A stretch of 64,000 bases of DNA from a virus. Lineage: Duplodnaviria > Caudoviricetes. The position numbers and the translations under genes are program-made. The stretch covers positions 32,001-96,000 of IMG/VR virus record IMGVR_UViG_3300036784_000120; one strand, 5' to 3'. The notes beneath the pieces were generated by a model, which saw nothing but the letters and a program-made list of their open reading frames with translations, did not search any database and was not told the origin of the DNA. Shown one piece after another: positions 13,556 through 53,287 of this stretch (positions are counted from its first letter, which is position 1; every line of letters begins with the position of its first letter).

Positions 13556-14872
13556 CTACTTGAGGCCGGTCACGGTCTTGAACCGGGACACGAGGTCGTC
13601 CCGGGAGGTGGCCGCCTGCCCGCCGTCGCCGGCGTCGTCCGGCTCGTCGTGCGGCGAGCCCATCTCATCGGACAGGTCGAGGAGGCGGGCCTGCCGCGCG
13701 TACTCGGTCAGGACCTTGCGGGTGATCGCGCCCGCATCAACGGTTTTGCCGTTGGCGAGCTCCACCGCCCGCCCGGCGCCCTCGAGCAGCGGCCTGGCCA
13801 GCTCCGTAATGTACGGGGGGACACCCAGGTCGGCGAGGTGCCGCTTCTCCGCCTGATAGTCCTCTTCGCGGAGCCGCGCGGTGACAACCGCGAGTTCCCT
13901 GGCGGTCTCCTCCTGCCGCGCGTTCGCCAAGTCGATCGCGAACTGGGCCTCAGCCGTCAGTCCTGCTGTCACGGGCTCCCCCTCTGGTACGTAATCCGGT
14001 GTGGCATCCGGGGTCCCGGACTCCGCTGCGGCCCATTCGGCTTCCAGCGCGGCGAGCTCGCCGTCGGACATGGCGGCGATCTCGTCAGCCAGCTCGTCGG
14101 CAGCCGCGTCCTCGCCCTGGCCGCCGTCCCCGTCGTCGCCCTCGTCCCCGGTGTCGCCGGGGTCGGTGAGCGCTTCCAGTTCCTCCGGGGTGACCACCGT
14201 GCCGCCCGCCGCGAGCGCGTCGAGAACGTCGTCAGGCAGGTCGAGCAGCTTCGTCAGCCGCTGCTTGTCCGCATCGCTGAGGCTGGTCAGGTCCGGCATG
14301 CCGTCTGTCCCTTCCGGGGGCTGGGTGATCTGGATGGCCGGCGCCTCGCCGGCGAAGTGCAGGGCGGACAGGTCAACTACCTGTTCCGGGACCGGGGTGG
14401 CGGCTTCGATCGCCGTCCATGCGCCGAGCCCGGGGATACGCGGGTCCAGGGTGCCGAGGACATGCTGGATCGCGGCCGGGAAACGCCTGCCGTCGGAGCG
14501 GGCGTAGTCCTCCACGATCCGCGCCGACACACCGAGGTTGGGGTTCTCGGTCAGCACCTTGTTCCCGGCCTCGGTCGGCTGCAGGGTGAGCCACAGGCCG
14601 TCAGGCTCGGCGTCCATCCCCACGATGTCGCCGCGGAACCGTTCGGGGTCGTTCGTGTGCGTGTTCTGCGCGTCCGCCAGCTGGAACGCCACCTGGTCAT
14701 AGGCGCGGTCCCGGAACGCCTGCGCGAGCTGCCCGAGGTAGTCCTTCGTGAAGTGCAGCAGCCGCCCCTTGTACTCCACGTCGCCGACGGGCAGCACCTT
14801 CTTGCGCCACAGCCGGTTGCCGAGCTCCACCGCCTCGCCGGAGGTGAACGGGGTCAGGACCGCGGCGGTCAC
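13556..14872 (-). CDS. Prohead protease-scaffold fusion (Mu gpI-like)
   Basis: N-terminal HTNDPE...GLW...GVSARI...HVLGTLDP domain plus acidic coiled C-terminal half. Confidence 0.8.
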   Translation of the reverse strand: MTAAVLTPFTSGEAVELGNRLWRKKVLPVGDVEYKGRLLHFTKDYLGQLAQAFRDRAYDQVAFQLADAQNTHTNDPERFRGDIVGMDAEPDGLWLTLQPTEAGNKVLTENPNLGVSARIVEDYARSDGRRFPAAIQHVLGTLDPRIPGLGAWTAIEAATPVPEQVVDLSALHFAGEAPAIQITQPPEGTDGMPDLTSLSDADKQRLTKLLDLPDDVLDALAAGGTVVTPEELEALTDPGDTGDEGDDGDGGQGEDAAADELADEIAAMSDGELAALEAEWAAAESGTPDATPDYVPEGEPVTAGLTAEAQFAIDLANARQEETARELAVVTARLREEDYQAEKRHLADLGVPPYITELARPLLEGAGRAVELANGKTVDAGAITRKVLTEYARQARLLDLSDEMGSPHDEPDDAGDGGQAATSRDDLVSRFKTVTGLK

Positions 14873-14875: not shown

Positions 14876-15847
14876 TCAGCCGGCCTTGCCGAACGAGCCG
14901 GCCTTCGTCTTCTGGCTGTTCTTCGCGAACGCCAGCGCCCGCGCGGCGGGGAACCCCTTCGCGATCAGCTTCTTGTAGATGGCCTGCCCCTTCGGGGTGA
15001 GACCGTTGTCGTCGGTGCTGTCACCTGACCCGCCGGCCGTGGTCATCTTCGGCCCGTCGCTGGCACCCGCAGTGGGGGTGGCGAACCCGGCGGAACGCAT
15101 CGCGGGGATGCCGTAGGTGGCCATCAGCGGTGTCTGCACCGGTTCCGGCTGCAGCGGCGCCGCGTCGTGCTCGGGGGTGACAGCGGACCGGATCGCGCCG
15201 TTCCACTGCCCCACCGCCTCCATCAGCGCGGTCCGCTGATGATCACGGGGGGTGAGGTCACGGCCGTTGACAGACGCGACCCACTGGCCGCCTTCGGTTT
15301 TGCGGAGCGACGCGATCGTCGCGCCGCCGTGCCGGTGCCGCAGCACCGCGGTCCCGTCAGCGCCGCGGGCGACAAGCACGTCCATCGGGCCGTGGATGGG
15401 GCGGCGCACTGTCCCGGTCGCCAGCTCGACGGCGCTGCGGGTGCCCGCGAGGGCGTGCGCGGCACCGGTTTTGACGGTCAGCGGCACCCCGTCACGCACA
15501 TACCCGGTGGACGGGGCGGGAGTTTGGAGGTCACCCGGACTGGAGTCCAGGGACGCGCCGCTGGCACCGAACCGGTTCGCGGGCCCCGAATAGCTGCATT
15601 CAGGGCAGGTCAGGGTGAGGCCCTGCTCGTCTTTCGCGGTTTCCGCGAGGTAGATGCCGAGGTCCGGGTTGGCGAGATGCTTGCCGTGCGACAGGCGCCC
15701 CATGCCGCCGGCGCCGTACTTGCGGCGGCCGATGAAAGCGGCGAGCGCGTCCGGGTTGCTGGCACCGCGGGCGGCGAGGGTCGCCGACAGTTTCTTGAAG
15801 CGGGTGCCAGAGCCGAGTTTTGGTGCGGCAAGATCCAGGGATGCCAA
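14876..15847 (-). CDS. Modular basic head-associated protein
   Basis: 323 aa, CPEC motif, modules preceded by LDLA / VELA. Confidence 0.6.
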   Translation of the reverse strand: MASLDLAAPKLGSGTRFKKLSATLAARGASNPDALAAFIGRRKYGAGGMGRLSHGKHLANPDLGIYLAETAKDEQGLTLTCPECSYSGPANRFGASGASLDSSPGDLQTPAPSTGYVRDGVPLTVKTGAAHALAGTRSAVELATGTVRRPIHGPMDVLVARGADGTAVLRHRHGGATIASLRKTEGGQWVASVNGRDLTPRDHQRTALMEAVGQWNGAIRSAVTPEHDAAPLQPEPVQTPLMATYGIPAMRSAGFATPTAGASDGPKMTTAGGSGDSTDDNGLTPKGQAIYKKLIAKGFPAARALAFAKNSQKTKAGSFGKAG

Positions 15848-26495: not shown

Positions 26496-26501
26496 TGGCG
26501 C

Positions 26502-27384: not shown

Positions 27385-27406
27385 GCCGTTTAGGGTACCA
27401 CTCCGC

Positions 27407-27436
27407 TTGCATGTACAGGGCGACGTATTGTACAAT
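27407..27436 (+). promoter_or_regulatory. Second TTGCAT-18-TACAAT promoter with TGTACA boxes
   Basis: Two mismatches versus 21431-21460. Confidence 0.75.
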
Positions 27437-27464
27437 TGGATCATACGGAGAGGATCCATCAGCC

Positions 27465-28658: not shown

Positions 28659-28772
28659 CATTTCTGCTGCCAGCCGAGTTGCTGCCTTCTCCGCGGCCTC
28701 CGGGGGTACGCCCGCCTGGGTCATGCAGGAAATCAGGAAGTCGATGCCCTGCTGCCGCTGCTGGTCATCCAT
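28626..28772 (-). CDS. Small protein (48 aa)
   Basis: MDDQQRQQGIDFLISCM..., TGATG-coupled to the upstream gene. Confidence 0.45.
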   Translation of the reverse strand: MDDQQRQQGIDFLISCMTQAGVPPEAAEKAATRLAAEMSGPGSVPPRP

Positions 28773-30073
28773 CAGGTGCTCCGCACGTAGTCGTCGATGA
28801 TCTGCGCCATCGGCGCGATGGCGGCGACAATGGCCGCGGCGATCGGCGCGATGCCGGTCACGATCCCGGCGATGGCCAGGCCCACCCCGGCCGTCACGAA
28901 CAGTGAGTACGCCACCAGGTGGACACGATCTTGCCGGTTGGCCTCGTTGTCGCCGTCGATCGCCTGCTTGCGAAGGAACGAGATCGTCCGCTGCTGGCTC
29001 TTGTGAAGCGCGGTGAGCTGCTTCTCCACCTCGTCATGCTGCTGCTGGGTGATCTGCCCGACCTGCCTGGCCACTTCCGCCGCGACCCGCGCATCGACGT
29101 ATGCCTTGAGCGCTGCCTGGCTGGCTCCGGGCGCTGCCAGGCTGGCCAGGGCAGGGTCGGTCTGCTGTAGCTTCTCCCCCACGGTGCCCGGCGTCGTCTT
29201 GAGAGCCTGGCCCCTGGCGACCGCTTCCTGGTGAGCAGGCGTCGGCACAGCCGCGAACACGGCAGCCGCCTGCGCCGCCGTGTCAGGCTGCCCGCTCGGC
29301 TCCGGGCGCGGCGCCACTGCCGCCTCCCTCGGGCGGAGCAGCTCGTTCATCGCCTCGGGAGCGACCCGTCCGTGCTGCCTCTCAGCCGGCGGGACATGGT
29401 ACGCCGGAACTGACGTGTGCACGGACGCACGATGCGTGGCCGGGGTTCCGGCGGCGGTTCTCGGCGTAGCCGGGCTGACTGCCTTCTCCGCTGCCCGCTG
29501 CGCCCGCACGATCTTCGCGGTGTGCTGACGGACCAGTTCCTCCTGATCAGGCGTCAGCTGGCGGCCCTGCGCGCTGGACACCGTGGCGTACCTCTTGGCC
29601 ACGAGCGCCGGGGACTCCCCGCGCTGCACGGCAGCGGCTTTAGCTTCCACGACCTTCTCGGCACGTCGTGCCTTGTTCTTCTCCCATTGCGCCGCCACCG
29701 CCGCCGACGTGTCGTTGAGCTGCTGGCCGATCAGCGGGAGCCAGCCGTGCCGGTACGTGAAGCTGGTGCCGGGGATGTGGTGACCGTGGATGGCCGCCAG
29801 GTCGAGTTGCTCCCAGATGGTCACCGGCTGGGACAGTTGCGCGCTGATCGGCACGGCGACCGTGGCCGCGGGGGCAGGCGGCCTCAGCGTGCCCACGAGG
29901 CGGGACAGCATCACCGACGCATCCCCGAGCTCGTTCGCCTCCGCGCCGTCCGCTCCGGCCGCCATCTCCCGGACGGCTTCCAGGGCGGCCGCGGCCCGCT
30001 GCTGCGGGTCCCGCCACGCCCAGCGCATGATCGAGCGCGCTTCCTCGCCCGCCGCCGTCAGCTGGACGCTCAT
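28772..30073 (-). CDS. Modular protein with C-terminal TM hairpin (ejection/cargo candidate)
   Basis: LDLAAIHGHHIPGTSFTYRHGW motif shared with 34724..38080; hydrophobic C-terminus. Confidence 0.6.
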   Translation of the reverse strand: MSVQLTAAGEEARSIMRWAWRDPQQRAAAALEAVREMAAGADGAEANELGDASVMLSRLVGTLRPPAPAATVAVPISAQLSQPVTIWEQLDLAAIHGHHIPGTSFTYRHGWLPLIGQQLNDTSAAVAAQWEKNKARRAEKVVEAKAAAVQRGESPALVAKRYATVSSAQGRQLTPDQEELVRQHTAKIVRAQRAAEKAVSPATPRTAAGTPATHRASVHTSVPAYHVPPAERQHGRVAPEAMNELLRPREAAVAPRPEPSGQPDTAAQAAAVFAAVPTPAHQEAVARGQALKTTPGTVGEKLQQTDPALASLAAPGASQAALKAYVDARVAAEVARQVGQITQQQHDEVEKQLTALHKSQQRTISFLRKQAIDGDNEANRQDRVHLVAYSLFVTAGVGLAIAGIVTGIAPIAAAIVAAIAPMAQIIDDYVRST

Positions 30074-33000
30074 GCCGCCTTCCCCTCCTCGGCCTGGAGC
30101 TGCTGAAGTTTCTGGGCAGCGGCGGCACGGAGATCAGCAGGCGTAGACGCATGGCCCTGATCCCAGTCGTCAGCGATATTCGCGGCTGCGGCAACCGTCA
30201 TCGCGTACGCCTGCTGCTGGTTGGCAGGGAGCATGTCACCGATCACCTGCCTGGCCATGACGTTCGGCTTGTCCAGCGTCCCGACCGCGTTCACCTGGTC
30301 CGCGATGTCCCTGATCGCAGCCATGGTGGCCGGGTCATTCTCCGGCTTGCCGGTTTTCATCTGCGCGGTCATCGACGCCCACTCGAACGCCTGCGCCGTC
30401 TGCTGCGGGTAGTGGCCCCACGAGTCCCCGGTCCTGATCGCGTCCGGTGACGACTTGTTGGCGGCCAGGTCAGACATGGTGGCACCAGGCGGGGCGTGCG
30501 GCGCGTCCGTGCCCGGTCCCCTGGCTATCGGCCTGTCCCCGATGCCCAGCTTGCCGAAATACTCACCGGCATGCTGAATAGCGCCCAGCTCAGTGAACCC
30601 CTCCTCTATATCGGCATTGCCCATGGACATGTTGTACGCTTCCTTGTCCCCGTTGGTTTCGCGGCTCTGCCCTTCGGGCACTACGGCGTGGATCAGCTCG
30701 TGCAGGTTCACCGCGTATGCGCCGGGCACCTTGACCGGCTGGTCAGGGTTATTCTCCGCGTCGGCTATCCCGGCGGCCACGTCGTTGCGCATGTCCATGT
30801 GGCCGTTCCAGTCCATGATCGCCAGGTCATTGCCCATGCTCGGGGACCACTTGCTGTACGTCGTGGGCGGCTTGCCGTCCCAGTCCAGGTGCGTGTCCGG
30901 GCCGAACATGTGCGGCACTATGGGAGCCGACCTGGCAATCAGCCTCCCGGCAGTTGCCTCGTCGCTCTTGCTTATGTGCTCAGTCCGGGAAATCTGGTTT
31001 TCTAGCTTGGTTATCTCATCCCCTTCGCCGCTCTTGACCCACTCCCCGCGGTGCCCGCGCAGTTCCGCCCGCCAGGCGTCACGCCAGCTCAGTTCCACTC
31101 CGGAAGACGGCACTTCACGAATGATGCGGACCGGGGATTTCGTTTGATGCTGGTCAGAACCGGCGGCGATTGGCCAGTGCTTCCCCGTGGGCTCAACCTC
31201 ATACACGTGCGGGTCACCCAGGCCGCCCCGGTCCCGTTCTGCGTAGTGCAGGGCATGCCGGACAGATCCCGCGATGTAAACAGACTTCGGGTCACTGTGC
31301 TCGGGACCGAAATTAGCCCGGTGCCCCACGGCCGGGTCAATAACGTCGCCCGGCTTGTGCACGTCACTGGTGCCATGGAACCATCGGCCGCCCGGCCCGC
31401 GATCCTCAGTCTCCCAGTCCAGTTCGATGACCTGCCCGGAGATCGAGTTGCTCGCGGAGATGATCCCGGCCGGCGGCTCGGTGTCCTCGTCTGCCCCGGT
31501 GTCTTCGGGTTCGTCGTGGGGCTGCTGCACTGCGACGGCCTGGGAGTGCCAGTGGCCGGGCCCGCGGAAGTGGTGGCCGCTGCCCACCGGGGTGCTCATC
31601 GCAGCTGCGGCGTGCTCGGGGACGTGCGGTGGCCAGAACCCGTCGCCGGACGCGAAATGGTAGGCGCCGCCGATCGCATGGGTGTACGCGCCGATCGTCT
31701 CCACCTGCCGCAGGCTGTCGAGCACCGTCACCGGGTCGATGTCGATCCGGTTCAGGTCATCGTCGTGGAACACCCCCAGGTACGAGCCGCCCTTGGCGAG
31801 CTGCTTGCCGTACTTGGACAGCGCGATGTTCATCGCCTCGTCGAACTGCTCGCGGCTGGCATGCTCGTCGATCGAGGTGGTGTCCAGGCCGGTCGGCTTG
31901 ATGCTCATCGCGTACTTGTCGGCGCCCTGCGGCAGGTCCTGCCCGGACCGCGGGTCGATGGTCGCGCCGCCCCACGACTTCTGCACCTCAGCGTAGGTGC
32001 GTGCCTTGATAGCCTCCCAGTTTTTGCGCATCCCCTCGGTGGTCCACGGCTGATGCTGAATGTCGTGGAGCCGGTCGCGGCCTTCCGCCGCCATCTGATG
32101 GAACTCGTCTTCGCTGACCGGCCTCGAGTTACCCCGCGCGCCTTCACCGCGGATCGGCTCAGTGACCTTCTCGAGCAGGCCCGCGCCGCCGCGGGTCCAC
32201 CGGCCGTCACGGTCGCGGGGCTCATCCCGCCACCCTTCCCAGCCGCGCAAGTCGATCAGGCGGGCCTGCCCGCTGACTGTCATGTCCTGCTCAGGTGCCA
32301 CCTCACGGACAACGCGCACCGGATGCGTGGTGCGGAAATCCTCCCCAGGCCGCCCGTCTGGATCCGCTTCCACTGGCCCGGTGGGTTCTACCTCATAGAC
32401 ATGCGCAGCCGCGTTCTCGTCCCGGGCCGCGCGCAGCCGGCCGATGCGATTGTGGGCGACGGTCGCGGCACGGTCGGCGTAGCGGGTAGCTACCTTGACG
32501 CTACGAGACACATGGTTGTACTGCCCCTGCAGACCGTTCACGTTCTCAAGACGGGGATCACGGGATGTGGCTGGGTGCCCTGTCTCAACTAGATCCCCGG
32601 GCTTCAGTACCGCGCTGGTGCCGTGGAAAAACTGGCCGTGCTCGTCCCGCGGTTCTGTCCGCCAGCCTTCCCAGTCGGATGCCGCCAGCTGCGCGGTCCC
32701 GCCGTACCGGGCATGCTGCTTCCCGCCGCCTTCCTCAGCGTCGGCCGTGACCTTATCCAGCCCGGCCAGCCATTTCGCCTCGGCCGGGTAGTTGTCGGTG
32801 AAGTGGACGGCGAGTTTCCCCGCATGCTCCACCGCGCCGGCGAGGTGCTTCTCGCAGTGGTCGGCGTTGAACTCCCATTCGGCGCCGTCCGGATCGGTGT
32901 CGGCTGTCATCGCTTCGGCGTGCCGGGATCCGTGGGTGAGCTCGTGGAGCGTTGTCTCGAGGAGATGCGCGGTGGTGGCGCTCTTGGCGGCGCTGCTGAC

Positions 33001-34089
33001 TGCCTTCGCCAGCCCGATCACGTTCCAGTCGTCAGCTACTGCCATGTCGGCTGGATAGTCAACGAAACCGGTCACGGGGCGGACACCTGCCACCATCTTC
33101 GCGGGGATGTCCTTCTTCAGCGCATAGGCAGCCCCGCCCATATGATCTTGCGCGGGCCACAGGAACTCGCTGGCCCTCGACTTCGGGATGCGGATCTTTA
33201 CGGTGGCGCGGTCACCTGCGCCGCGGCTGGCGTACGCATCGGCTGTCTGCCGGTTTACGGTAGTGACGGGCCATTTCGCGGGATAGATGTGCCCTTCTGA
33301 GACATGCAGGCCGGTTTTGGCGATGGAGTCGGCATTCTCCCGGCTCGTACCGTGGTAGAGCGTGATCCACTCGCCGTGCCCCCCCCGCGCCTCGTGTTCC
33401 CATGCGGCCAGGTCCAGTGCCGCGGCCTGCTGCCCGGTCAGCCCGACCGCCTGGCGGACCTGCTCGAGTTCCGCCGCCTCAGCGGGGTAATGCTCGCGGA
33501 GGTTCGCGGTGAGCCAGTGCGCGTCGTCGAGGGCGGAGGCCAGGTGCCGGGCGACATGCGTGCAGTGATACGCGCGCAACGCCCCGGCCGCGGCCCGGGC
33601 GGCGGTCATCCGGCCGGCGGCGTGCGCGAGGTTATGCAGGATCCCGTCGACACGGTGGGCGGTGAACATGGCGATCGCCGCACGATCGCCGGGGACGGGC
33701 AGGCCGGGTGCTGTCATCGCCGCCGGGGCAACCGTCACCGCGGCGGCCAGGTCCAGCGCCTGGGCGGTGATACTGGCGTGCTCCTGGCCGGGCTGCGGGT
33801 CGTTGCGGCGTTCGATCAGCTCGTGGGCGATCTCAAGCCAGTCAACTGCGGCCGGGTCACCGCCGGACGCTGCGAGGTCCTCGAGCACGGCACGGGGCAC
33901 CAGGTGCTCGTGCAGCGTGTCCGCGACAGTGTGCGGGTTACCCGGGTATTCGCGGGCCACGTCGAGGGCCTGCCGCAGCACATCCTCGTTGGTGAAGATC
34001 CACTTCACCAGGTGCATGGTTTCCTGGGTGTGCCAGCCTTGCCCGGTGAAACCGGGGACATGGCCGTCAATCTGAGCGGTGATCGTCAT
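30070..34089 (-). CDS. Polyvalent protein: three ADP-ribosyltransferase-like domains, a HEXXH metallopeptidase and His-rich repeats
   Basis: YHGT once and FHGT twice, VYEVEPTG twice, LHELIH...EEGFTE. Confidence 0.78.
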   Translation of the reverse strand: MTITAQIDGHVPGFTGQGWHTQETMHLVKWIFTNEDVLRQALDVAREYPGNPHTVADTLHEHLVPRAVLEDLAASGGDPAAVDWLEIAHELIERRNDPQPGQEHASITAQALDLAAAVTVAPAAMTAPGLPVPGDRAAIAMFTAHRVDGILHNLAHAAGRMTAARAAAGALRAYHCTHVARHLASALDDAHWLTANLREHYPAEAAELEQVRQAVGLTGQQAAALDLAAWEHEARGGHGEWITLYHGTSRENADSIAKTGLHVSEGHIYPAKWPVTTVNRQTADAYASRGAGDRATVKIRIPKSRASEFLWPAQDHMGGAAYALKKDIPAKMVAGVRPVTGFVDYPADMAVADDWNVIGLAKAVSSAAKSATTAHLLETTLHELTHGSRHAEAMTADTDPDGAEWEFNADHCEKHLAGAVEHAGKLAVHFTDNYPAEAKWLAGLDKVTADAEEGGGKQHARYGGTAQLAASDWEGWRTEPRDEHGQFFHGTSAVLKPGDLVETGHPATSRDPRLENVNGLQGQYNHVSRSVKVATRYADRAATVAHNRIGRLRAARDENAAAHVYEVEPTGPVEADPDGRPGEDFRTTHPVRVVREVAPEQDMTVSGQARLIDLRGWEGWRDEPRDRDGRWTRGGAGLLEKVTEPIRGEGARGNSRPVSEDEFHQMAAEGRDRLHDIQHQPWTTEGMRKNWEAIKARTYAEVQKSWGGATIDPRSGQDLPQGADKYAMSIKPTGLDTTSIDEHASREQFDEAMNIALSKYGKQLAKGGSYLGVFHDDDLNRIDIDPVTVLDSLRQVETIGAYTHAIGGAYHFASGDGFWPPHVPEHAAAAMSTPVGSGHHFRGPGHWHSQAVAVQQPHDEPEDTGADEDTEPPAGIISASNSISGQVIELDWETEDRGPGGRWFHGTSDVHKPGDVIDPAVGHRANFGPEHSDPKSVYIAGSVRHALHYAERDRGGLGDPHVYEVEPTGKHWPIAAGSDQHQTKSPVRIIREVPSSGVELSWRDAWRAELRGHRGEWVKSGEGDEITKLENQISRTEHISKSDEATAGRLIARSAPIVPHMFGPDTHLDWDGKPPTTYSKWSPSMGNDLAIMDWNGHMDMRNDVAAGIADAENNPDQPVKVPGAYAVNLHELIHAVVPEGQSRETNGDKEAYNMSMGNADIEEGFTELGAIQHAGEYFGKLGIGDRPIARGPGTDAPHAPPGATMSDLAANKSSPDAIRTGDSWGHYPQQTAQAFEWASMTAQMKTGKPENDPATMAAIRDIADQVNAVGTLDKPNVMARQVIGDMLPANQQQAYAMTVAAAANIADDWDQGHASTPADLRAAAAQKLQQLQAEEGKAA

Positions 34090-34337
34090 CCCGTCGCCGC
34101 CCTCGATCGTTTCCCTGTCCCGCTGCAGTGCTCGCAGGGCACGGTGTCATCCACCGTCGCGGCGGCCCGGGCGCGTTCCTGCCGCCGCCATTCGAGGTAC
34201 TCGTTCGACAGGACCCGGATGCTGGTCGGGACGGGGCGCCCGCACCGCCACAGCCGCACATGGGTGGCGCGGGCCTCACGCAGCACAGCGATACGGTCCT
34301 CGTCGATCGTGGTGGTCTCGGCGGGCTGGGTGGTCAC
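34086..34337 (-). CDS. Hypothetical protein with C-terminal CEHC
   Basis: 83 aa, overlaps neighbours. Confidence 0.55.
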   Translation of the reverse strand: MTTQPAETTTIDEDRIAVLREARATHVRLWRCGRPVPTSIRVLSNEYLEWRRQERARAAATVDDTVPCEHCSGTGKRSRAATG

Positions 34338-34714
34338 AGCGCCCGCCGTTCCTGCCCGGCGGCGGGCAGTTCCCGGTCTGCGTTCTCCCAGTTCCGCCAG
34401 ATAGTCATCAGCTCAGCGAGGCATTCCGCATAGGTCGGCTTGGTGATGATGAGCATCCGCTGCATGACGGTGGTGAGGTGCCAGCCGTCGAGCGCCTGAA
34501 CGGCATCGACCGCGGCCTGGAACGCGGATCCTTTCAGGTCTTTGCTCGCGTACAGCCGTTTCCCGGCGGGCACGTCGACACCGACCATGACCCATTCGGG
34601 GTCCAGTTCACCCGCTGGCCGGGGCGGCTGGTAGCTGCCGCTGCCCCGTTGCCGCCTGGGGGCGTCCGCCGCGGCGGCGGAGCCCGGTCGGCTGTACCGT
34701 TCGACCTCGGTCAT
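34334..34714 (-). CDS. Hypothetical protein
   Basis: 126 aa. Confidence 0.6.
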   Translation of the reverse strand: MTEVERYSRPGSAAAADAPRRQRGSGSYQPPRPAGELDPEWVMVGVDVPAGKRLYASKDLKGSAFQAAVDAVQALDGWHLTTVMQRMLIITKPTYAECLAELMTIWRNWENADRELPAAGQERRAL

Positions 34715-34723
34715 GCCGGCTCG

Positions 34724-37700
34724 CTAAAGTTTCGCGGCCTGCGCGGTGAGCGCGGCCGCCTGGGTCAGCAGGGCGGTGACCTGCTTGGTCAGCGCGGTGA
34801 TCTGCGCCTTGATCTGCAGCTGCGACATGCTCTTTTGCAGCGCGGCGGTCTGCGCCGGGGTGACCGCGCTCGCGGCGGCCTTCACTCCGGCGGTGACCTG
34901 GGAGGCGACCGTGGACGCGGCGGTGGCGGTCTTGGCGGCGGTGGTGGTCTTGGCTGCCGTCGTCTTCGCCGCGGTCGTGGCGGTGGTGGCTTTCTTGGCG
35001 GCGGTCGTGGCCCCGGCCTGCTTGGTGGTGGTGCCCTTGAGCGCGGCTTTCAGCAACGCGAGCTGCTTCATCTTGGCCGCAGCCTGCGCCCGCAGCGCGG
35101 CGGCCTGCTTGTTGAGGGCCGCCTTCTGGCTGGCCTTTGAGTTAGCACCGCCGCCGGCCCCGCTAGCTCCACTGCCGCCGCTGCCGAACTGGCCGCCGCC
35201 GAGCTGCCCGGCCGCGATCCGCGGGTCTTGCGCCGCCCCCGCCGCCGTGCCCGTCAGCTCAACCACCACCGAGGACAGGTCATCCCAGGTGCGGCCTCTC
35301 CTGGCAGTCGCCGGCCGGCTGGCCGTCAACTCAACCACCGATGCCACGTTGTCCCATGTCACGGTCATCATCTTCGCCGCCTGTGCCTGTGTCTGCCACG
35401 CTGATGCGAGCAGGTCGCTGATCTGGGTGTTGAGCAGCGCGACCCGCTGCCCGTCGCCGCCGGTTTTGCGCAGCGCGTCCCGCTGCCTGATCAGTGCGGC
35501 GGCCTTCGCCTGCCCCTCCTGGGCGGTGACCATCGCCTCCGCCTCCGCCGTGGACACGCCGTTAGCCTGCGCGACGCGGGCGACCTTCTTCGCGCGGGCG
35601 GCCTGCGCCTTGGCCGGCACGGCGGCGGGCTTCGCCGGCGCGGCGGTCTGCGCGGCGGGCTTCACCGGCGCGGCAGCCGCAGCAGCCGGGTCCGGCGCGG
35701 CGGCCTTCACCGGCACGGCAGCCGGGGCCGGAGCGGCAGCCTGGCCGCCTTTGACAGCGCCCTTCGGCGGGTTGAGCACCGCCGCGAACTCGAGCGCGGC
35801 GGTCTGCGAGCTGAACTGGCCGGGATCATCGAGGCGGTTGCCCGGACCCTTGGCTATGGCCCGCTGGTTGGCGGCCAGGGGGTTGGACGTAACCGCGCGG
35901 ATAGCGTTAGCCATGCCAGCAGCCCGGCCACTTCGCTTTTGGAACCCGAAACTGGGATTCGGCCAGCCGGACTTGACCTCGAACTGTTCCTTCCGGCCGC
36001 CGGGGAACTCCATCAGGACGCGCTGCGGACCCTTGGGGCTGACCAGCTTGCCCTGCTTGTTCCTCACGGGCAGCATGTTGCGGCTGCCGCGCACGACTCC
36101 CCGCCCGTACTTCGGGTGGGTGTGTATGGTGCCCGGCTCCGTCTCGGTGATCCCGCCGACCAGGACCCACCCGTGGTGGTACGTGTACCCGGTCCCCGGA
36201 AGGTGGTGCCCCGCGATCGAGGCCAGCTCGATCACCCGGTCGAGGTCACGCCAGGTCCAGCTCAGTTCGTCCATGCCGCCGTTAGGCCCTCCGCCGTAGC
36301 CGCCGCTGTCGACCAGTTCCTGCTGGATCTTGCGACTGGAGAGTGTCGGCGGCCCGTACGAGCTGAGTGCCGCGTTGTCCTTGAACTCCTGGATCTTCGC
36401 TGCCGCCAGGTCAGACGCCTGCATCCACAGCTGATGCGACCGTTGCATGTCACCGGCTGCCGCCGCCGCGCGGGACTGCCTCACCAGCCGCACGACATCC
36501 GGGTGCTTGTTGGCCGCCGCCCTGGCCTTCTCGTCCAGCGAATTCGGGTCGGGGGCACTCGTGTCAGACCAGGCAGCCCCGCCGCCGGACCACTCGCCGC
36601 GACGGTTACGCCGCTGCGCCGGGTTGAAATGGCTGAGGAAACCCAGTTCGATCGGGTCGAAGCGCCAGGCCAGTTCAACCACTGCCGCGACATCATCCCA
36701 GGTCGCGGCGTGACCGTGGATGGCCCTGGCTGCCGCGCCTTTCGCTTTCTCCTCCGCCAGCGCTCCCGCCGCCGCAGCACGGACCTCCGGGTGGGCGTGA
36801 CCGCCGCCCCGCGACCATTTCCGCAGCGCCCCGTACGCGATCGCCGACGCGCGGCCCTTGTCCATGCCCCGCTTCTCCATCAGGGCCTTGACGACCTGCT
36901 CGAAGTAGTCGGAATGCTTCATGCCCTTGACGCCGTACAGGCCGGGTCCGCCCGGCTTCCCGTACGGCGCCGGGGTGACCGCCAGCCGGCCTGTCTGGGC
37001 ACTGAACTCGAACAGCGGTGCGCCGTTCCTGGTGGGACCGTATCCGTACTTTTTCGTGCTCTTGCGGATCGCCTTGGGCAGCGGCTGCCCTATGATGCGC
37101 GCCAGGCTGGCGATGTCCGCCTTGCCCACCTTGGACCGGCTGGAGTTGCGCTCGCGCTCGCGCATGGCCTTCACGCTGTGACTGGTCGCGCCCTTGGTCA
37201 GCCTCTTAACCAGCGCGTTCACCAGATCGTCACTGGACCACTCGCCGTGCTTGCCGCGCTTCTCGCCCGGGTCGTAGTGGTGCCCCAGCCCGATCACGCG
37301 GTCAAGGTCACCCCACCCGTATGCCGCGAACTGCTTAGAACCGTTCGGCTGCCCGCGCTGCGGGTCCGCCACGGCCGGGTCACTGCCGCCGCTGCTGGTC
37401 CGGTCCGGGGCGTTCAGGGCCCGGTCACCGCCCGGCTGCCTCGCGGTTGGCCTGGCGGCGAGCGCTCCCGGACCGTACCCGGCGTTCGGGTCGCGGCCCG
37501 GCGGGGCTGACGCGTCGTCACCGTAGGAGTCCCGCCGGAGCGCCGCCTGGTTCCGCTCCGCCACATCGGCGATGTCTTTGACGAGCAGCAGGTGCCGGTG
37601 GACGCCGTGCATCGTCAGGCGGGCGGCGGTGTGCGCGTCGTCGGTGTGCAGGCCGTGCCGCATCAGCGACTGCGGGGTCAGGGAGAACATGGCGGCCCGC

Positions 37701-38080
37701 AGATGCCGCTGGGCGGCTTCCTCGTTCCCCGCGCGGAGCGTCCTGGCTGCGTCCCGGACATGCTGGTGGACGATCATGTCGGGATGGTCGGCGGCGATGT
37801 GGTCGGCGAGTTTGCTCATCGACTTCGCGGCCTGCACCCGCATCGGGGTCAGCGGCGTGTGCCTCGAGCGGCGGAACGCCGGCGGCGGGACGGCGGCAGG
37901 AGGTACGGAATTGGCTCCCCGCGCGCCTACCGTTTTCGCCGGAGTTGAACCGGTCCCTGCTCTTACCTGCGGATTGACCGCCGTCCTCCGCCCGCCGCGG
38001 CTGCGTGAGACAGCGCCAGCCGGCTTACCCAGCGGACGGCCAGGGGGCGCCTTCTTGACTGCTGCCGGGGAAGCGGTCAT
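34724..38080 (-). CDS. Large basic modular protein with repeated WxD..V[VI]EL motifs and a histone-H1-like tail
   Basis: 1118 aa; AAKKATT repeats. Confidence 0.7.
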   Translation of the reverse strand: MTASPAAVKKAPPGRPLGKPAGAVSRSRGGRRTAVNPQVRAGTGSTPAKTVGARGANSVPPAAVPPPAFRRSRHTPLTPMRVQAAKSMSKLADHIAADHPDMIVHQHVRDAARTLRAGNEEAAQRHLRAAMFSLTPQSLMRHGLHTDDAHTAARLTMHGVHRHLLLVKDIADVAERNQAALRRDSYGDDASAPPGRDPNAGYGPGALAARPTARQPGGDRALNAPDRTSSGGSDPAVADPQRGQPNGSKQFAAYGWGDLDRVIGLGHHYDPGEKRGKHGEWSSDDLVNALVKRLTKGATSHSVKAMRERERNSSRSKVGKADIASLARIIGQPLPKAIRKSTKKYGYGPTRNGAPLFEFSAQTGRLAVTPAPYGKPGGPGLYGVKGMKHSDYFEQVVKALMEKRGMDKGRASAIAYGALRKWSRGGGHAHPEVRAAAAGALAEEKAKGAAARAIHGHAATWDDVAAVVELAWRFDPIELGFLSHFNPAQRRNRRGEWSGGGAAWSDTSAPDPNSLDEKARAAANKHPDVVRLVRQSRAAAAAGDMQRSHQLWMQASDLAAAKIQEFKDNAALSSYGPPTLSSRKIQQELVDSGGYGGGPNGGMDELSWTWRDLDRVIELASIAGHHLPGTGYTYHHGWVLVGGITETEPGTIHTHPKYGRGVVRGSRNMLPVRNKQGKLVSPKGPQRVLMEFPGGRKEQFEVKSGWPNPSFGFQKRSGRAAGMANAIRAVTSNPLAANQRAIAKGPGNRLDDPGQFSSQTAALEFAAVLNPPKGAVKGGQAAAPAPAAVPVKAAAPDPAAAAAAPVKPAAQTAAPAKPAAVPAKAQAARAKKVARVAQANGVSTAEAEAMVTAQEGQAKAAALIRQRDALRKTGGDGQRVALLNTQISDLLASAWQTQAQAAKMMTVTWDNVASVVELTASRPATARRGRTWDDLSSVVVELTGTAAGAAQDPRIAAGQLGGGQFGSGGSGASGAGGGANSKASQKAALNKQAAALRAQAAAKMKQLALLKAALKGTTTKQAGATTAAKKATTATTAAKTTAAKTTTAAKTATAASTVASQVTAGVKAAASAVTPAQTAALQKSMSQLQIKAQITALTKQVTALLTQAAALTAQAAKL

Positions 38081-39140: not shown

Positions 39141-39261
39141 GAGGCGCACCATCCGCAGGTCGTGGTGTGGCGGCGGCCCAGCGGACGCCACCGGCAGCCG
39201 CACCGGCAGTCATGCCGCCGCCAGACAGCGAGCCGGACCAGCCGCCGCTCAAACGTGACGC

Positions 39262-40746
39262 TCATGCTGCCCTCGCATATCTCGCGCCGCGGCTCGGCAG
39301 CAGCGCCGCACCCGGCCAGGGCGGGCCCGGATAGCAGCGGCAGTTGTGAACTAGAATGCTATTGGCGGTGTACCAGCCGGTCGTGGTCTGGAGGTTGTAG
39401 ACGTGCGTCGAGTCCCGGAACCTGCGGACCTGCCTAACCTGGTCGAACGCTACGACAGAGGCCAGAGCGTCAAGGCGCTCGCCGACGATCTCGGCATGAG
39501 CCGGATGGCGCTGACCAGGTTCCTCCGCGAGAACGGCGTCCAACTCCGCGGCATCACCGACGCTAACCGCCTGCTGGCGGCTAACCGCAGCCCCGAGGAG
39601 CATGCGCGCAACGCCGAGGCGGCTCACGCCGCCGTGCGCGGAAGCCGTCAGACGATCGGGCACCGGACCAAGATCGCCCGCGCCAAGCACGGCCAGGCGA
39701 CCGGGAGCCCCACGGAAATGCTCTATGCCGAGTGGCTGGCCGACCTGCACCCGGTGCATCAGTTCGCGGTCGGCCCGTACAACTGCGACCTGATGATCGA
39801 GCCCGTCGCCGTGGAAATCAACGGCGGCCACTGGCACGGTTCCGGTCGCCACGCGGCCAGGGCCCGCGCCCGCACCGAGTACATCCTCGATCAGGGCTAC
39901 AACATCGTGTTCGTATGGGTCACCGGCCGCACAGGCGGCGCCCGGATCGAGAGCGCGAACTACATACGATCTGTCGTCGAGTTCGCCAGCAGCCCGGTAC
40001 CCCTGCGGGGTAAGTATTGGGTGGTTTGGGGTGACGGTGAGGTCGTACCCATCGGCGGTTACGATCTCGACGAACTCGCCGACGTACCGACGCGCGGCCC
40101 CAAGCAGCACTGACGGCGACACCACCTTGGTGCCCGCCGGGAAGCAGTGCGGGTGGACAGCACCGGGGAACCCTATGTGCGGCATGGCCGTGGCGTAGAA
40201 GTTTTTCCGGTCCGCGGCCATGCACTCGGCGCTGGTCCGGTCGTCGAGCACCGTGTTCCAGCCGAGCAGCGGCCCGTGCTCCACCGCGGCCATATCCGTT
40301 TTCCCTGCCGCAGTGGCCCGGTTCCACATGGCTGCCTGATGCTGCGCATAGAAACGGCGTTCGGTGGCGAGCTGATCCCGGATCGCGGCGGTCACCGGGG
40401 TGCCTTTCGCCCGCGCGTCCCGCGCCGCCCCCATCACCCGGCGGGTCGCGGCGATCACGTACTGGGCGCGGCGGGCCGCGTTCATCCTTGAGGTTTGCTC
40501 CGATGCCGCCCCGATCACCCCGGTCACCGGCGGCGGGGTCTGCATCACGTCGGTGAGGACCCCGCCGAGCGCCTGCCACGTCGCGGCGGGCAGGGCGAAC
40601 CGCCGTTTCAGCAGCGCGACCGCGGAGGCCGCGGATACGGCGGTGACGAGCACCGCGGCGACAGCGACGGCGAGGGCAGCGTCACCCAGGCCGTCATCAC
40701 CCGCCGGCGGCGGCGGGGGCTGCTGCTGCGGTGCCGGGGTGGTCAT
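39262..40746 (-). CDS. MuF/SPP1 gp7-like minor head protein containing an intein
   Basis: WNTVLDDRTSAEC; HPH|CRC is restored after splicing. Confidence 0.88.
   Translation of the reverse strand: MTTPAPQQQPPPPPAGDDGLGDAALAVAVAAVLVTAVSAASAVALLKRRFALPAATWQALGGVLTDVMQTPPPVTGVIGAASEQTSRMNAARRAQYVIAATRRVMGAARDARAKGTPVTAAIRDQLATERRFYAQHQAAMWNRATAAGKTDMAAVEHGPLLGWNTVLDDRTSAECMAADRKNFYATAMPHIGFPGAVHPHCFPAGTKVVSPSVLLGAARRYVGEFVEIVTADGYDLTVTPNHPILTPQGYRAAGELDDRSYVVRALDPGAACAAGDPYEHDVVALIEDVLGAGAGPGRVATGTVPVAAVDFHGDGLDHQVAVVRADRELMHRVQVGQPLGIEHFRGAPGRLAVLGAGDLGPVPDRLTASAHGGVSRLGVARMLLGAAVSRQQAVSVGDAAELDAVLAEEPGQRHPAHAEIVGERLDALASVVAFDQVRQVRRFRDSTHVYNLQTTTGWYTANSILVHNCRCYPGPPWPGAALLPSRGARYARAA
39343..40146 (-). 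mobile_element. Intein (268 aa) inserted in the MuF HPxCRC motif
   Basis: C1 CFPAGTKV, block B TPNHP, block F HVYNL, terminal VHN followed by Cys+1. Confidence 0.92.
39403..40113 (+). CDS. HTH plus Vsr/DUF559-like endonuclease, antisense inside the intein
   Basis: HTH SVKALADDLGMSRMALTRFL; SPTE...QFAVGPYNCDL...AVEINGGHWH...GYNIVFVW; GGAGG 8 nt before the GTG. Confidence 0.82.
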   Translation: MRRVPEPADLPNLVERYDRGQSVKALADDLGMSRMALTRFLRENGVQLRGITDANRLLAANRSPEEHARNAEAAHAAVRGSRQTIGHRTKIARAKHGQATGSPTEMLYAEWLADLHPVHQFAVGPYNCDLMIEPVAVEINGGHWHGSGRHAARARARTEYILDQGYNIVFVWVTGRTGGARIESANYIRSVVEFASSPVPLRGKYWVVWGDGEVVPIGGYDLDELADVPTRGPKQH

Positions 40747-42628: not shown

Positions 42629-42951
42629 TGTGCGGCCCCCGGTGTCCCATGCACCGCTGCCGTCCACGCCGTGATCACGGCCGTCACGAACCGGGGATCC
42701 TGGCTCATCAGCCCGTCCAGGTCGGCAGGCACCGGATGACCGTCGTCGTCCTCCACGTTCCACGACTCCAGGGCGTAGCCGAGCGTCGCGGTCATATGGC
42801 GGAACGCCGCCAGGTCACCGGAGGCGACCGCAGCAGCAGTGTCGAGCATCACCGACATGGGCACCGGCCGGACCGTGATCTCCAGCCCTTCATACTCGGT
42901 GCCGGTGAAGTCCAGCTTGAACGGGGCGCGTTTCGGCCGGAAACCTGTCAC
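42625..42951 (-). CDS. Tail-chaperone-like protein
   Basis: YEGLEITVR...LESWNVEDDDGHPVPADLDGLMSQD. Confidence 0.5.
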   Translation of the reverse strand: MTGFRPKRAPFKLDFTGTEYEGLEITVRPVPMSVMLDTAAAVASGDLAAFRHMTATLGYALESWNVEDDDGHPVPADLDGLMSQDPRFVTAVITAWTAAVHGTPGAAQ

Positions 42952-44557
42952 TGTGCCGCTCCCGGTAGTCCGCCTGCTGCGGGCGGGTTCTGCGGTGGCC
43001 GCGGCGGGCCCGCGGCGGCGGGACGCATCTGCGGTGCCGACGGCGGCCGTGGCCCCTGCTGCCCGCCGCCGGCCCTGGCGGCGGCCTGCTGCGTGATCGC
43101 CGTGCCCGCCTGCGCGAGTCCCTGCAGCTGGCCGAGCCCCGCCGCGGCCTCCGGCGGCATGCCAGGCGGCGGATTGCCAGCTAGCTGTTCGGCACGTTGC
43201 GAAGCGGTAGACACCAGCGCGTCATGCACCTGGTCCACGTCCAGCTGCAGAATCGACGCCATCCGTTCGGTGATCAGGTCAAACACCTGCAGCGGCACGT
43301 GCAGCACCGGCGCCGCCGACATCTGCCCGAACATCGTCAGCAACTGCTGCGCCTGCTCATCCTGAAGCGGACCGAACTTCGCCTGCGGATACGATGCGCC
43401 GGTACCGAAGTTGAGCATCACCAGCGGCCGGATCACGTCGTAGGAGATGGATTCGGCGATTTCCTTCGCCACACCCTGACGCGACTTCAGGTAGAAGTCG
43501 GACTGGTCCTGCGACAGGCTGTAGGCGCCCTTCCCGCCGGTTGACGCGGACGCGAGGCCGAGGAACCCGGCCAGCACACTGCTGATCGCCCACGACGACA
43601 GGAACGACAGCGCCTGGGAGAAGAACAGGCCCGCATCCGCGGACGACGGGATCGCCTCGAACGCCTTCTGCCCGTCGATCGGGTGCACCAGCCCGACGAC
43701 ACCGGAGCCGCGGAGCTGGGAAATGTCGTCGGCGCGGGCGGTGGCTTCCGGCTGGTCGTTGCCGTAGACGACAAGCCGCTGCAACGCCATGTTCTCCAGG
43801 TAGTAGTACCAGAGATACAGCAGCTTCATCTGGGTCGAATGGCACCAGTACGCCACCTCAACCTCGGACACGCCCGTCAGCGGCTCCCGGTGCTTCCCGT
43901 GGGTGTAAATGTAGGAGCGGATCTTCGGGATATCCACATACCCCGGCACCTTCTGCCGCCTGGACAGCATCAGGTTCCCGCCGAACAGCCACACCTGCTG
44001 CCGGAACCCGTTCGCCTCCCCCGACCTGTCGTTATACCGGGCCTGGCACGTGGCAGGCGGGCGGAACGCGATCTTGTCGTAAACGATCTTCCCGTCCGAC
44101 TCGCGGACCTTGAACGTCTTCTCGAAAAACGCCCGCCGGTACAGCTGACCCGACGTGATCTGGCCGAGCAGCTCCGTCATCGGCGTCCGCATGCCGCCCT
44201 CAGTGTCCGGCGTCATCAGCACGCTGCGGATGAAGTCGCATTCGCCTTTGTCGCCCTTGCCGGGCTCAATCGAGAAGTCGGCTTCGCGGATCGGGAGGGT
44301 CAGCACCAGCTCGAGGGCCTGCGCGGTGCCGTTGCGGGAGAACATGGTCTTCAGGTCACGAGACGACCATTCGCCATATTCTTAAATCGAAGACATCACC
44401 CTCGCCGTAGTAGGCGAACAGCCGCTGACCGTAGTCAAACGAGGTCTAAAGTCCCGATCTCAGGACCCATCAGGGTCCGCTTGCCGCCCGGGCCGCGGGA
44501 GCCCTTGGGGGGGAGATCGGGGAAGGCGATCACGTTAGCGTCTTTACCGGATGCCAT
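42948..44557 (-). CDS. Portal protein (about 531 aa), interrupted by two 7-nt TTA-containing inserts
   Basis: Mu gp29/DUF935-like core; N-terminus MASGKDAN...GPEIGT|SFDYGQ...DVFD|YGEWSSRDLKTMF is restored by removing 2x7 nt. Confidence 0.82.
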
Positions 44558-51594: not shown

Positions 51595-53287
51595 CTATCG
51601 CCACGACTTGACGTTGCCCCGGCCGCGGTCCGGTTGCGCCTGGTCATCGTCGTCTGGCGAAAAGCCGTCCAGGTCCCACGGGGCCGCATCCATGTTCTGC
51701 TGCGCCTTCTCCATGATTTCCCGCATCCTGCGATGCCCGCGTGCTTCCTCCCCGATGCCCATGTCCGCGAGGTTCTGCGCGCCTGCCCACTTCCGTACGG
51801 CACCCGGCCCGTACTCGCCGAGGTGCGGCACGAACGCCTGCACCACGGCGTCGCCGTCGTCGGTGGACCGGCCGAGCCGCTCCCGGATGTCGTCTTTGCC
51901 TTCCACCTGGATCCGGCCGCTTGACGTGACATCCCACTGCGGTGTCGACAGGTCACCGAGCAGCATCTCGTCGTCCGGCAGGCAGATGTCCGGGCGGGCC
52001 GACGGGTCCAGGGCCTGCCGCAGCGTCCACCACGCTTCACTCCTGCGGTTGGCGAACCCGAACTCGCGGGTGGAGTCTTTCGCCTTCGACCCGCGGGACG
52101 CGTTGAACGCCAGCACCCTGGCGTGCTGCTCGCGGAGCCGGTCGACGACACCCGCGCCGATACCGATCACGTCAACCACGGCGGTGCGGGAATCGTCAGC
52201 GGACAGGATCGCGTTCACCCGCCCCGTGGTTTTCATCGTGTCTTCCCGCACGAACCGGCGCAGCTCCGTGATCACGGGCCCGTTACGGATCGCGAGGACA
52301 GTGCGGTCCTCACCGGTCCTGGCCACGTCCACCCCGACGGTGCGGGGCCTGCCCAGGTCCGGCTTGCCCGCAGCCTCCCACTCATGCCAGCGGGCCACCG
52401 CCGCCTCAGCCCACGCCAGCGGGATAACCGAATCCTCGTCGCCGGCGTGGAACTCGCCGAGCACCCGGTTCACGTAGATCGCTGACGTTTCACCCCACTG
52501 GCGGAGCCGCTGCGCCGCCCAGTCCCTGGTGACCCGCCCCGCCGTGATCGCGTCGTCGAGGGTGACATGGACCGGATACCAGTCCTCGTACCCCTGCCGG
52601 CGTGACTGAATGTCGTAGAACCGGCCCTGCGGTGCCCCCGGCGTCGACAGTGCCAGCGCGAACGCTTCCCTCGTGCCGTCCCCGGCGCCGGAGAACGCGC
52701 CTTCGCACGCGTCGAACGTGCCCGCCGGGATCGCCTTGCTCTCGTCGTAGACGAACAGCAGCGAATCGGCGTGCGCGCCTTCGATCAGCGCCGCGTTAGC
52801 TGACGCGCCGGCGAACGCATGCCCGTAACTGAGCCGCAAGTTCAGGTTCTGCAGCTCCGCCCGGGTGAACGGGTGGCCGTCACGGACCCTCCCCCATTTG
52901 ATCCGGCCGGCCCACTTGTGGATTTCCGGCCACAGGTACTGGGTCAGCTGATGCCATGACCCGGCGGTCGTCGCGACCTTCCAGTCCACGCCGGCGGCGT
53001 CCCGGGTCAACGCAAACCACAGCACCGTCACCGCCGCGATGGTGCTTTTGCCCAGTCCTTAATCCATGGGGGCCGCGGACCGCTTCGCGTTTCCGCTGCG
53101 GCAGGCCCCCAATGATTTCCTCCTGGTATCCGGTCAGCCCCTCGCCGCGCCAGTCGATGCAGTCCGCGGCGAAGCCGAGCGGGTCATCGTAGTAGCGGGC
53201 GACGCCCTGCTTGATTTTCGCTGCGCGCCGCTGCAGTTCCAGCAGGTAGCGCAGCCGGTCAGCCGGCGCCTGTATCTGCGGGGTCAT
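51595..53287 (-). CDS. terL: Terminase large subunit (about 561 aa), interrupted by a 7-nt TTA insert in Walker A
   Basis: GPHG|LGKST restored; VYDE Walker B, LSTP, VGVDVARTGED, STDDGDA. Confidence 0.9.

Follow-up and report, generated by a model that had tools for sequence, protein, structure and literature searches.

The question raised by this locus is why a phage head-assembly operon should carry chains of enzyme modules, each led by the same short sequence, and how such chains could be loaded into a head and taken apart. The locus lies in bases 32001-96000 of the 127,789-bp virus record IMGVR_UViG_3300036784_000120, a stretch of 64,000 nucleotides with 69% G+C (hereafter the window), and the source phage is an uncultured soil actinophage. 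Three genes on the minus strand are at issue: P0003, coding for a modular protein of 1118 amino acids (aa) (34724..38080), P0002, coding for a polyvalent protein of 1339 aa (30070..34089), and P0001, coding for a protein of 433 aa (28772..30073). All three are real open reading frames (ORFs), with a G+C content at third codon positions (GC3) of 0.82-0.87. An earlier reading, made from the letters alone and called here the sequence-only reading, had proposed that they encode polyproteins packaged into the prohead and punctuated by protease-site and targeting motifs. The analysis identifies the products as phage-type polyvalent, that is multi-effector, proteins of the head-assembly operon, and confirms that a header of about 30 residues stands before each swappable module of these chains, an observation far beyond chance.

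The header motif

A profile made from seven header copies, taken from the window and one relative, was searched against 1.84 billion representatives and recovered 100 clusters at E <= 1e-3, most of which hold two to seven header copies each. The logo drawn from 280 copies resolves the header into two blocks. Block A reads [TSG]-I-[ST]-x-Q-x-h-[ED]-L-[ASG] and block B reads [AG]-W-[RE]-x-[HFT]-(NP)-x-E-x-R-[DG]-x-H-G-[RE]-W-[TVI]-[RK], with Q, L, W, E, R, G and W conserved at 84-100%. Of 114 related proteins from metagenomes, 111 contain matches to the header hidden Markov model (HMM), 288 copies in all, with a median spacing of 264 residues. A copy starts within the first 12 residues in 63 of the 114 proteins, as M-TTISEQhx[ED]L..., and single-module proteins of 165-380 aa have one copy near the N-terminus. 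Homologs of P0002 have the same header before every module, the first one included. The boundary motif is a real conserved unit that also heads proteins of a single module, which supports the sequence-only reading in part. When the HMM was run over all 1816 six-frame ORFs of the genome, significant matches were confined to P0002 (five copies, independent E-values (i-E) from 3e-4 to 1e-10) and P0003. Because the header precedes unrelated folds and is predicted to be disordered where it was modelled (header 5 of P0002), it behaves as a linear motif and not as part of a domain. Searches of the literature with header strings and with DUF7178, the commonest Pfam match in the P0002 family, returned no published description of the motif.

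Two other explanations of the motif itself were rejected. It does not belong to the ADP-ribosyltransferase (ART) fold, as it precedes at least ten unrelated folds, and it is not a 2A-like or Asp-Pro self-cleaving element, as an NP or DP dipeptide occurs in one header subtype only.

The boundary and motif strings quoted in the sequence-only reading are all present in the translations of the three ORFs. Among the 76 proteins of the window, the pattern R...G.[WF] occurs five times in P0002 and twice in P0003, against four hits lacking the upstream context in the other 74, and W.D[LV]..V[VI][EG]L occurs five times, every time in P0003. The second block said to be common to P0003 and P0001 is indeed found in both, in the GHHIPGT form. 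The recurrence of a [VIL][ED]L[ASG] motif also stands, but a strict fit of all headers to it does not, since headers 2-4 of P0002 read LAASD, IDLR and IELD. The frequency comparison by which that reading could be checked came out in its favour: [VIL][ED]L[ASGT] is about 9 times as frequent in six head-module proteins as in the comparison set (17 in 3718 aa vs 16 in 31,879 aa; Fisher p = 4.5e-9), a set picked after the motif had been seen and containing homologous header copies that are not independent of each other. A 438-aa protein encoded upstream of the capsid gene, discussed below, has five copies of this motif where 0.57 are expected from shuffled sequences.

Module architecture of P0002

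P0002 consists of an N-terminal helical region followed by five header-delimited modules, the last of which is a zinc peptidase. Header 1 (aa 210-243, 33361..33462, minus strand, as are all features of this protein; i-E 4e-10) leads a module that by its sequence is a candidate ART of the YHGT type. Header 2 (aa 463-489, 32623..32703; i-E 3e-4) has a degenerate block A and the block B RDEHGQF, of which GQF abuts the first Arr strand in the alignment to Arr-2 and 2HW2. It is followed by an Arr-like ART module (aa 487-598, 32296..32631), recognised with Pfam PF12120 and from the PDB entries of Arr-2 (9iba) and Arr (2hw2). Header 3 (aa 598-633, 32191..32298; i-E 1.6e-9) stands before a conserved module without an assigned function (aa 634-875), which has homologs in the family proteins P0004-P0007 and P0032. 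Header 4 (aa 876-905, 31375..31464; i-E 1.4e-10) leads a second Arr-like ART module (aa 903-970, 31180..31383), seen as the second Arr-ms stretch and matched by the NCBIfam model rifampin_ARR_Sa below its cutoff. Header 5 (aa 986-1019, 31033..31134; i-E 1.2e-7) precedes the peptidase and is predicted to be flexible, with a predicted local distance difference test (pLDDT) value of 35-52 in the AlphaFold2 (AF2) model.

Over its two stretches the Arr-ms family (PF12120) scores 62 bits on P0002, against a cutoff of 25. The NCBIfam equivalog for rifampin ART activity (rifampin_ARR, NF033144) reaches 57.7 bits, under its cutoff of 130, and the exception models are also far under theirs. Judged from these matches, the modules are Arr-like in fold, and it would be unsafe to take rifampin as their substrate.

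The C-terminal module (aa 1040-1339, 30073..30972) is modelled as a gluzincin-like metallopeptidase with a pLDDT of 87 and a predicted template modelling score (pTM) of 0.81. Its HELIH sequence (HExxH) and a downstream EE are invariant in 30 homologs. With VIA-align it gives Z scores of 8-10 over about 190 residues to M1 aminopeptidases, leukotriene A4 (LTA4) hydrolase, dipeptidyl peptidase III (DPP III) and thermolysin; a Foldseek search of the module yielded no significant PDB match, the gluzincin core being shown by VIA-align only. This peptidase is present in 55 of the 114 family proteins, which makes it the commonest module, and it usually comes last.

The homologs of P0002 form a polymorphic family. 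Pfam matches over 56 members include DUF7178 (26), Abhydrolase_8 (7), ADPrib_exo_Tox (7), ParB_N (4) and PI3/4-kinase (3), as well as Zeta toxin, NUDIX, GNAT and 2H phosphoesterase domains. Taken together with the gene order in relatives described below, these domain matches bear out the claim that modular multi-enzyme chains are encoded in the head-assembly operon.

Headers in P0003 and P0001

P0003 has a basic N-terminus, several small modules, an Ala/Pro-rich spacer and a Lys/Thr/Ala-rich coiled-coil tail. In its family block A is longer and reads W-D-D-L-x-x-V-I-E-L. The second blocks are of several types, VGPKGYIHGW, RVPAGQAGGGQF, GHHIPGTxYTYxHGW, the P0002 type and SAxTxxLxVTPAPYGKPGGPGLY, all of which except the last end in G-x-[WF]. 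In P0003 itself (minus strand), header 1 (aa 253-283, 37232..37324) reads WGDLDRVIGL ... RGKHGEW, and header 2 (aa 464-499, 36584..36691) reads WDDVAAVVEL followed by a duplicated block that ends in RNRRGEW. A header variant, WRDLDRVIEL ... GHHLPGTGYTYHHGW (aa 610-640, 36161..36253), recurs in homologs. Further downstream (aa 909-965, 35186..35356) two tandem copies of block A are followed by DPRIAAGQLGGGQF, for which the family variant is RVPAGQAGGGQF. The protein has 88 homologs, some of them with Arr, ADPrib_exo_Tox, PG-binding or PI3/4-kinase cassettes.

Between its first two headers (aa 284-460, 36700-37230, minus strand) P0003 contains a module with the sequence TPAPYGKPGGPGLYGVKGxKHSDYF...AIAYGALRKW, which is found behind a header in many relatives and has no match in the libraries.

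P0001 contains a single header variant. The rest of the protein includes a long region that is Ala/Pro-rich and helical, and it ends in a hydrophobic hairpin, to which a weak DUF3040 match belongs. The header variant (aa 87-111, 29741..29815, minus strand) reads WEQLDLAAIHGHHIPGTSFTYRHGW; both it and the protein are conserved in locus L001, the protein in other loci as well. Apart from the DUF3040 match, library scans with Pfam, PHROGs and NCBIfam found nothing for P0001, P0003, the 438-aa protein or a 323-aa protein encoded next to the latter. A PDB sequence search with P0003 and the 438-aa protein gave nothing usable, and a protein atlas contained no match to P0003.

Gene order in the window and in relatives

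The late genes of the window lie on the minus strand, starting with the large terminase (51595..53031), and the tape measure gene (222..3983) ends the tail genes. The terminase is followed by the Mu-type portal protein (42948..44345; PF06074, phrog_113), the MuF-like minor head protein (39262..40746), two small genes, P0003, genes for 126 and 83 aa, P0002 and P0001. After P0001 come a 13-kb non-structural block, the genes for the 323-aa, 438-aa, 67-aa and 188-aa proteins, the major capsid protein (MCP; 11845..12756; phrog_1650 with E 1e-67, PF25209) and the tail genes. The MuF-like protein matches phrog_15127 (head protein) and Intein_splicing, its intein being inserted between HPHC and HNCRCY, and its gene is separate and not fused to effectors. 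The 323-aa protein (g323; 14876..15847, minus strand) starts in translation with MASLDLAAPK, which resembles block A.

Genomic contexts came from IMG/VR. A search there with the capsid protein gave 185 relatives, and the comparison used the 80 best loci, which are 87-97% identical. Twenty-five loci include at least 7 kb of upstream sequence, and in 24 of them the genes are arranged as portal, MuF, a P0003-like gene, the 126-aa gene (g126) in some, a P0002-like gene, a P0001-like gene in some, g323, protease, the 67-aa gene (g67) in some, the 188-aa gene (g188) and MCP. The 13-kb insert of the window is absent from those relatives, and in most of them the effector genes directly abut g323 and the protease; a methyltransferase gene stands at the same place as in the window in L028. 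All 33 header-bearing ORFs of the relatives lie upstream of the MCP gene and on the same strand.

Cassettes vary between close relatives. For example, L001 has an ART of the R-S-E type where the window has the Arr-like ones, followed by the same peptidase module, and the breakpoints of homology between relatives coincide with headers. In L027, L042, L062, L074, L075 and L077 consecutive genes start exactly at a header, which shows that the same modules occur fused or split. A complete relative genome of 72,872 bp with terminal repeats encodes a three-header protein and has no detectable zinc-peptidase module in that protein or elsewhere in the genome. This makes it less likely that processing in general depends on the embedded peptidase.

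The 438-aa prohead protease-scaffold protein

The 438-aa protein (13556..14872, minus strand), of which more than 800 homologs were found, is a prohead protease fused to a helical, scaffold-like C-terminal region. The AF2 model, based on a 43-sequence alignment, starts with a beta domain predicted with confidence (aa 1-143), continues with a disordered linker (aa 144-191) of pLDDT below 50 and ends in a helical C-terminal half. In Foldseek the top match is T4 gp21 (5jbl; E 1.4e-4, probability 1.00, template modelling score TM(target) 0.50-0.57), followed by the proteases of human cytomegalovirus (HCMV), Kaposi's sarcoma-associated herpesvirus (KSHV) and Epstein-Barr virus (EBV). The model and the structural matches thus agree with the earlier suggestion of a protease, and point to a predicted domain of the T4 gp21/assemblin type. 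H72, S116 and H137 are invariant in 43 homologs and form a candidate catalytic His-Ser-His triad.

Two conserved sites of the form h-h-[DE]-L-[ST] outside the protease domain resemble block A. In the disordered linker a PxxVVDLSA site (aa 160-170, 14363..14395) has an invariant D167, with L168 and S169 at 90% or more, and PxxV-I-D-L-S-A is nearly invariant in relatives. It is also the best match of the header HMM in the genome outside the polyvalent proteins, though not a significant one. Before the last helix there is an LLDL[SD]xE[LM]G site (aa 395-406, 13655..13690). Both sites persist in relatives down to 45% identity, and the protease sites and headers of this clade all share h-[DE]-[LF]-[AGS]. 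By their positions the two correspond to the release (R) and maturation (M) sites of herpesvirus assemblin, at which assemblin-type fusions cut themselves. By analogy, the linker site is a candidate self-release site and the site before the last helix a candidate maturation site.

Possible roles of the header

In view of the above, several roles of the header can be considered. The one that we favour, with a probability a little short of even, is that P0001, P0002 and P0003 are capsid-loaded cargo and that the header is an "address plus cut-here" tag processed by the prohead protease. That the proteins are packaged, cleaved and ejected, which bond would be cut, and how the two blocks would share the work are all inferred. 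Each module would be a self-contained cassette, led by its flexible header of about 30 residues and autonomous for head loading. Block A would be recognised in the procapsid core by the gp21/assemblin-like protease-scaffold protein of the phage and later be cut by the same enzyme, which would also process its own linkers at the sites that resemble block A. After the cut, block B would stay as the new N-terminus of each released module and could serve for retention, for exit through the tail or as an extended docking site for the protease. Once released, the ADP-ribosyltransferases and the other enzymes would leave the head together with the DNA and act early in infection, like T4 Alt and the internal proteins. 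The placement of the header at the N-terminus in more than half of the family proteins (63/114), and the neighbouring genes of relatives that begin at headers, are tag-like features.

The sequence-only reading had assigned the processing to the prohead protease. Its gp21-like fold holds up, but not its standing as the sole candidate, since the embedded gluzincin peptidase of the P0002 family is a second one that had been overlooked. This peptidase could act on the headers both in cis and in trans, and do so within the head or following injection. Its gluzincin-like fold is modelled with confidence, and HExxH...EE is invariant in it. No other module is as common, its usual place is the last, and zincin peptidases are the processing enzymes proposed for polyvalent proteins in PMC5512222. 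Nevertheless we consider this route improbable. The P0003 and P0001 families have headers and no peptidase, and the complete 72,872-bp relative and other portal-to-MCP loci have headers without a detectable peptidase, although a very divergent one could escape detection. AF2 leaves header 5 disordered instead of docked in the active site, and cutting by the peptidase would leave the block-A-like sites in the linkers of the serine protease unexplained. It is the combination of these shared sites, the headers in the peptidase-free P0003 and P0001 families and the peptidase-free complete relative that favours the prohead protease over the embedded peptidase.

A header that is never cut is the alternative with the better prospects, although it too appears unlikely. 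The header would then be a flexible linker and docking peptide, for the capsid interior, the scaffold, the portal or MuF protein or a host factor, or it would mark a recombination junction, and the chains would act intact. Conservation runs through both blocks for about 25 positions, more than protease sites usually span, block A is kept at extreme N-termini, where cutting frees nothing useful, and gain, loss and replacement of modules between relatives break at headers. Moreover, N4 vRNAP and plasmid ArdC/TraC1 are transferred full-length (PMC5512222). However, the split genes that start at headers show that modules work apart, and the likeness of block A to conserved sites in the linkers of the protease would have no explanation. 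Header copies within one gene share about 30-50% of their residues and, judged from this, would be poor substrates for homologous recombination within the genome. The proteins might also not be virion cargo at all, but cytoplasmic or lysis-released toxins or host-takeover enzymes that are expressed late and merely lie in the late operon. The non-structural block with DnaN, methyltransferase, Mom and flavohemoglobin genes also sits inside the head module, and the 126- and 83-aa genes that separate P0003 from P0002 could have immunity or chaperone functions of the kind found in polymorphic toxin loci. This is the least probable of the readings considered, as relatives without the 13-kb insert strictly keep these genes between MuF and protease, the N-terminal tag logic and the shared protease-like sites would remain unexplained, and the domain repertoire matches that of proteins predicted to travel with the DNA (PMC5512222).

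Several observations weigh against a loading and cleavage tag as favoured here. Block A is conserved even at N-termini. Header 2 of P0002 is without [ED]L, and in headers 3 and 4 the next position is R or D. Of the five [VIL][ED]L sites in the protease-scaffold protein three fall within predicted secondary structure (strands or helices), and a cleavage site must therefore be defined by more than the tetrapeptide; no [VIL][ED]L-type site occurs in the MCP, portal or MuF protein of the window. The N-terminal SLD[LF] of g323 is kept in close relatives, and distant ones have MATYAGA instead. A tblastn search with P0002, P0003 and two single headers against 50,697 records of cultured phages detected no relative. 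Finally, large proteins of other phages (P0076, P0095, P0097, P0090 and P0111) have block B alone, as [KF][AF][GD]PxDEPRDxHGRWT, four to seven times per protein and before each module, which suggests that the general function may lie in block B and not in block A. Several of these block-B-only copies directly precede ART modules of the YHGT type. The genomic context of P0097 is only a 9-kb fragment of low G+C content, which matches the ART domain.

The distribution of the two blocks also leads to a more speculative proposal, which we regard as rather doubtful. The header would be a two-part portable code, in which block B (+F[ND]PxExRDxHG+W) would be a widespread leader, common to many unrelated phage lineages, and would be joined to a lineage-specific block A that is matched to the phage's own prohead protease. 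If this is true, a header would suffice for any cassette, encoded singly or as part of a chain, to enter the head, be freed by cleavage and be ejected. Such a code would account for the ease with which modules fuse, split and are swapped, and would provide a general handle to find or engineer capsid cargo.

Other genes of the window

The non-structural block that splits the head module (16315-28607, about 13 kb) contains a 228-aa ORF and genes for a flavohemoglobin, a Mom-like protein, a 725-aa DUF3560-methyltransferase and a DnaN clamp. The flavohemoglobin-like gene (17005-18291, minus strand) encodes a Globin and an oxidoreductase NAD-binding domain within the phage late region, and may be a host-derived auxiliary gene for nitric oxide (NO) or oxidative stress. 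The 725-aa protein (23715-25892), encoded on the opposite, plus strand, combines DUF3560 with a C-terminal domain like that of adenine methyltransferases. Since it aligns with segments of very long PHROG families (up to 3431 positions), it looks like a fragment of a polyvalent protein.

Between the MuF gene and P0003 lie two adjoining small genes (38077-39203, minus strand) for proteins of 192 and 183 aa, the second with a DUF2283 match. A common N-terminal motif, DDEAYEFYA[ND]P, makes the two look like paralogs. The 126- and 83-aa genes between P0003 and P0002 (34086-34714, minus strand), the former of which is kept there in several relatives, may be immunity or chaperone genes for toxic modules. 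An RlaP-type nucleotidyltransferase of the DNA polymerase beta family, belonging to an RNA repair pathway, is encoded between the terminase and portal regions (48467-49309, minus strand). A tail fibre or spike gene with Mtd_N (the N-terminal domain of the major tropism determinant) and a pectate-lyase-like beta-helix (62571-63998, plus strand) runs off the end of the window.

Implications and comparison with known systems

Polyvalent proteins are predicted to act in a newly infected cell before any other phage protein, and the conserved header, together with a protease that has similar sites in its own linkers, bears on how they are loaded and separated. If the header is a loading or processing tag, injected effectors could be discovered systematically in metagenomes, anything behind a header being a candidate. 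It would also explain the shuffling of effector cassettes, and could be used as a tag for packaging foreign proteins into actinophage heads.

The likeness to herpesvirus assemblin is one of position only: in both cases a protease-scaffold fusion has one short conserved site just behind the protease domain and a second one close in front of the C-terminal tail. The assemblin site has the sequence V/L-x-A|S, which differs from the sites found here, for which cleavage is predicted by analogy.

In phage T4 the capsid targeting sequence (CTS) is 10 residues long and ends in a gp21 site. It directs cargo to the prohead core (PMC10052503). Compared with the CTS, the internal proteins IPI-III and Alt of T4, the present system likewise has a gp21-like protease fold encoded near the capsid gene, an ADP-ribosyltransferase as proposed cargo, and a motif common to the protease-scaffold protein and the proposed cargo. 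The short N-terminal tag, which ends in a candidate protease motif, may be the counterpart of the CTS. The tags share no sequence similarity (L/I-x-E in T4), and host and phage lineage are unrelated. Here the tag is also repeated inside multi-module chains and has a second block, RxxHGxW, and the system is known from sequences alone. The proteases phiKZ gp175 and SPN3US gp245 cut many head-internal proteins at a short A/S/G-x-E consensus, sometimes at several sites per protein (PMC10052503, PMC5694885). The use of a prohead protease on head-internal proteins at a short consensus is what is proposed here as well, but their cuts remove N-terminal propeptides and do not separate strings of enzymes.

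The MuF polymorphic toxins (Jamet et al. 2017, PMC5576092) resemble the present proteins in having variable toxin cassettes, ART toxins included, at the head-morphogenesis module. Here MuF is a separate, intein-bearing gene, there are several cassettes per protein, and library scans found no MuF domain in P0001-P0003. A term search of that paper turned up no wording on linkers, cleavage, a conserved motif or a central domain.

The closest relatives in concept are the polyvalent proteins of Iyer, Burroughs, Anand, de Souza and Aravind (2017, PMC5512222), for which delivery with the DNA and processing by embedded zincin peptidases are predicted. The class of proteins and the idea of processed head cargo are thus already known. 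The bipartite header and its match to the protease's own linkers were found neither in PMC5512222 and PMC5576092 nor by string search. A search of the former showed no use of "linker", and the passages it brought up mention no inter-module header. As in that class, several unrelated conflict enzymes (ARTs, ParB, NUDIX, kinases and hydrolases) are combined per polypeptide. P0002 has the at least two conflict-related catalytic domains by which the class is defined, in the form of its two Arr-like ART modules and the gluzincin module. The last, with its HExxH and downstream EE and its Z scores of 8-10 to M1 enzymes, thermolysin and DPP III, also represents the zincin-like hub domain, and the association with MuF and portal genes is seen in relatives. 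What sets the present proteins apart is that every module, the first included, is led by a conserved bipartite header of about 30 residues, and that we tentatively attribute the processing to the serine prohead protease instead of to an embedded peptidase.

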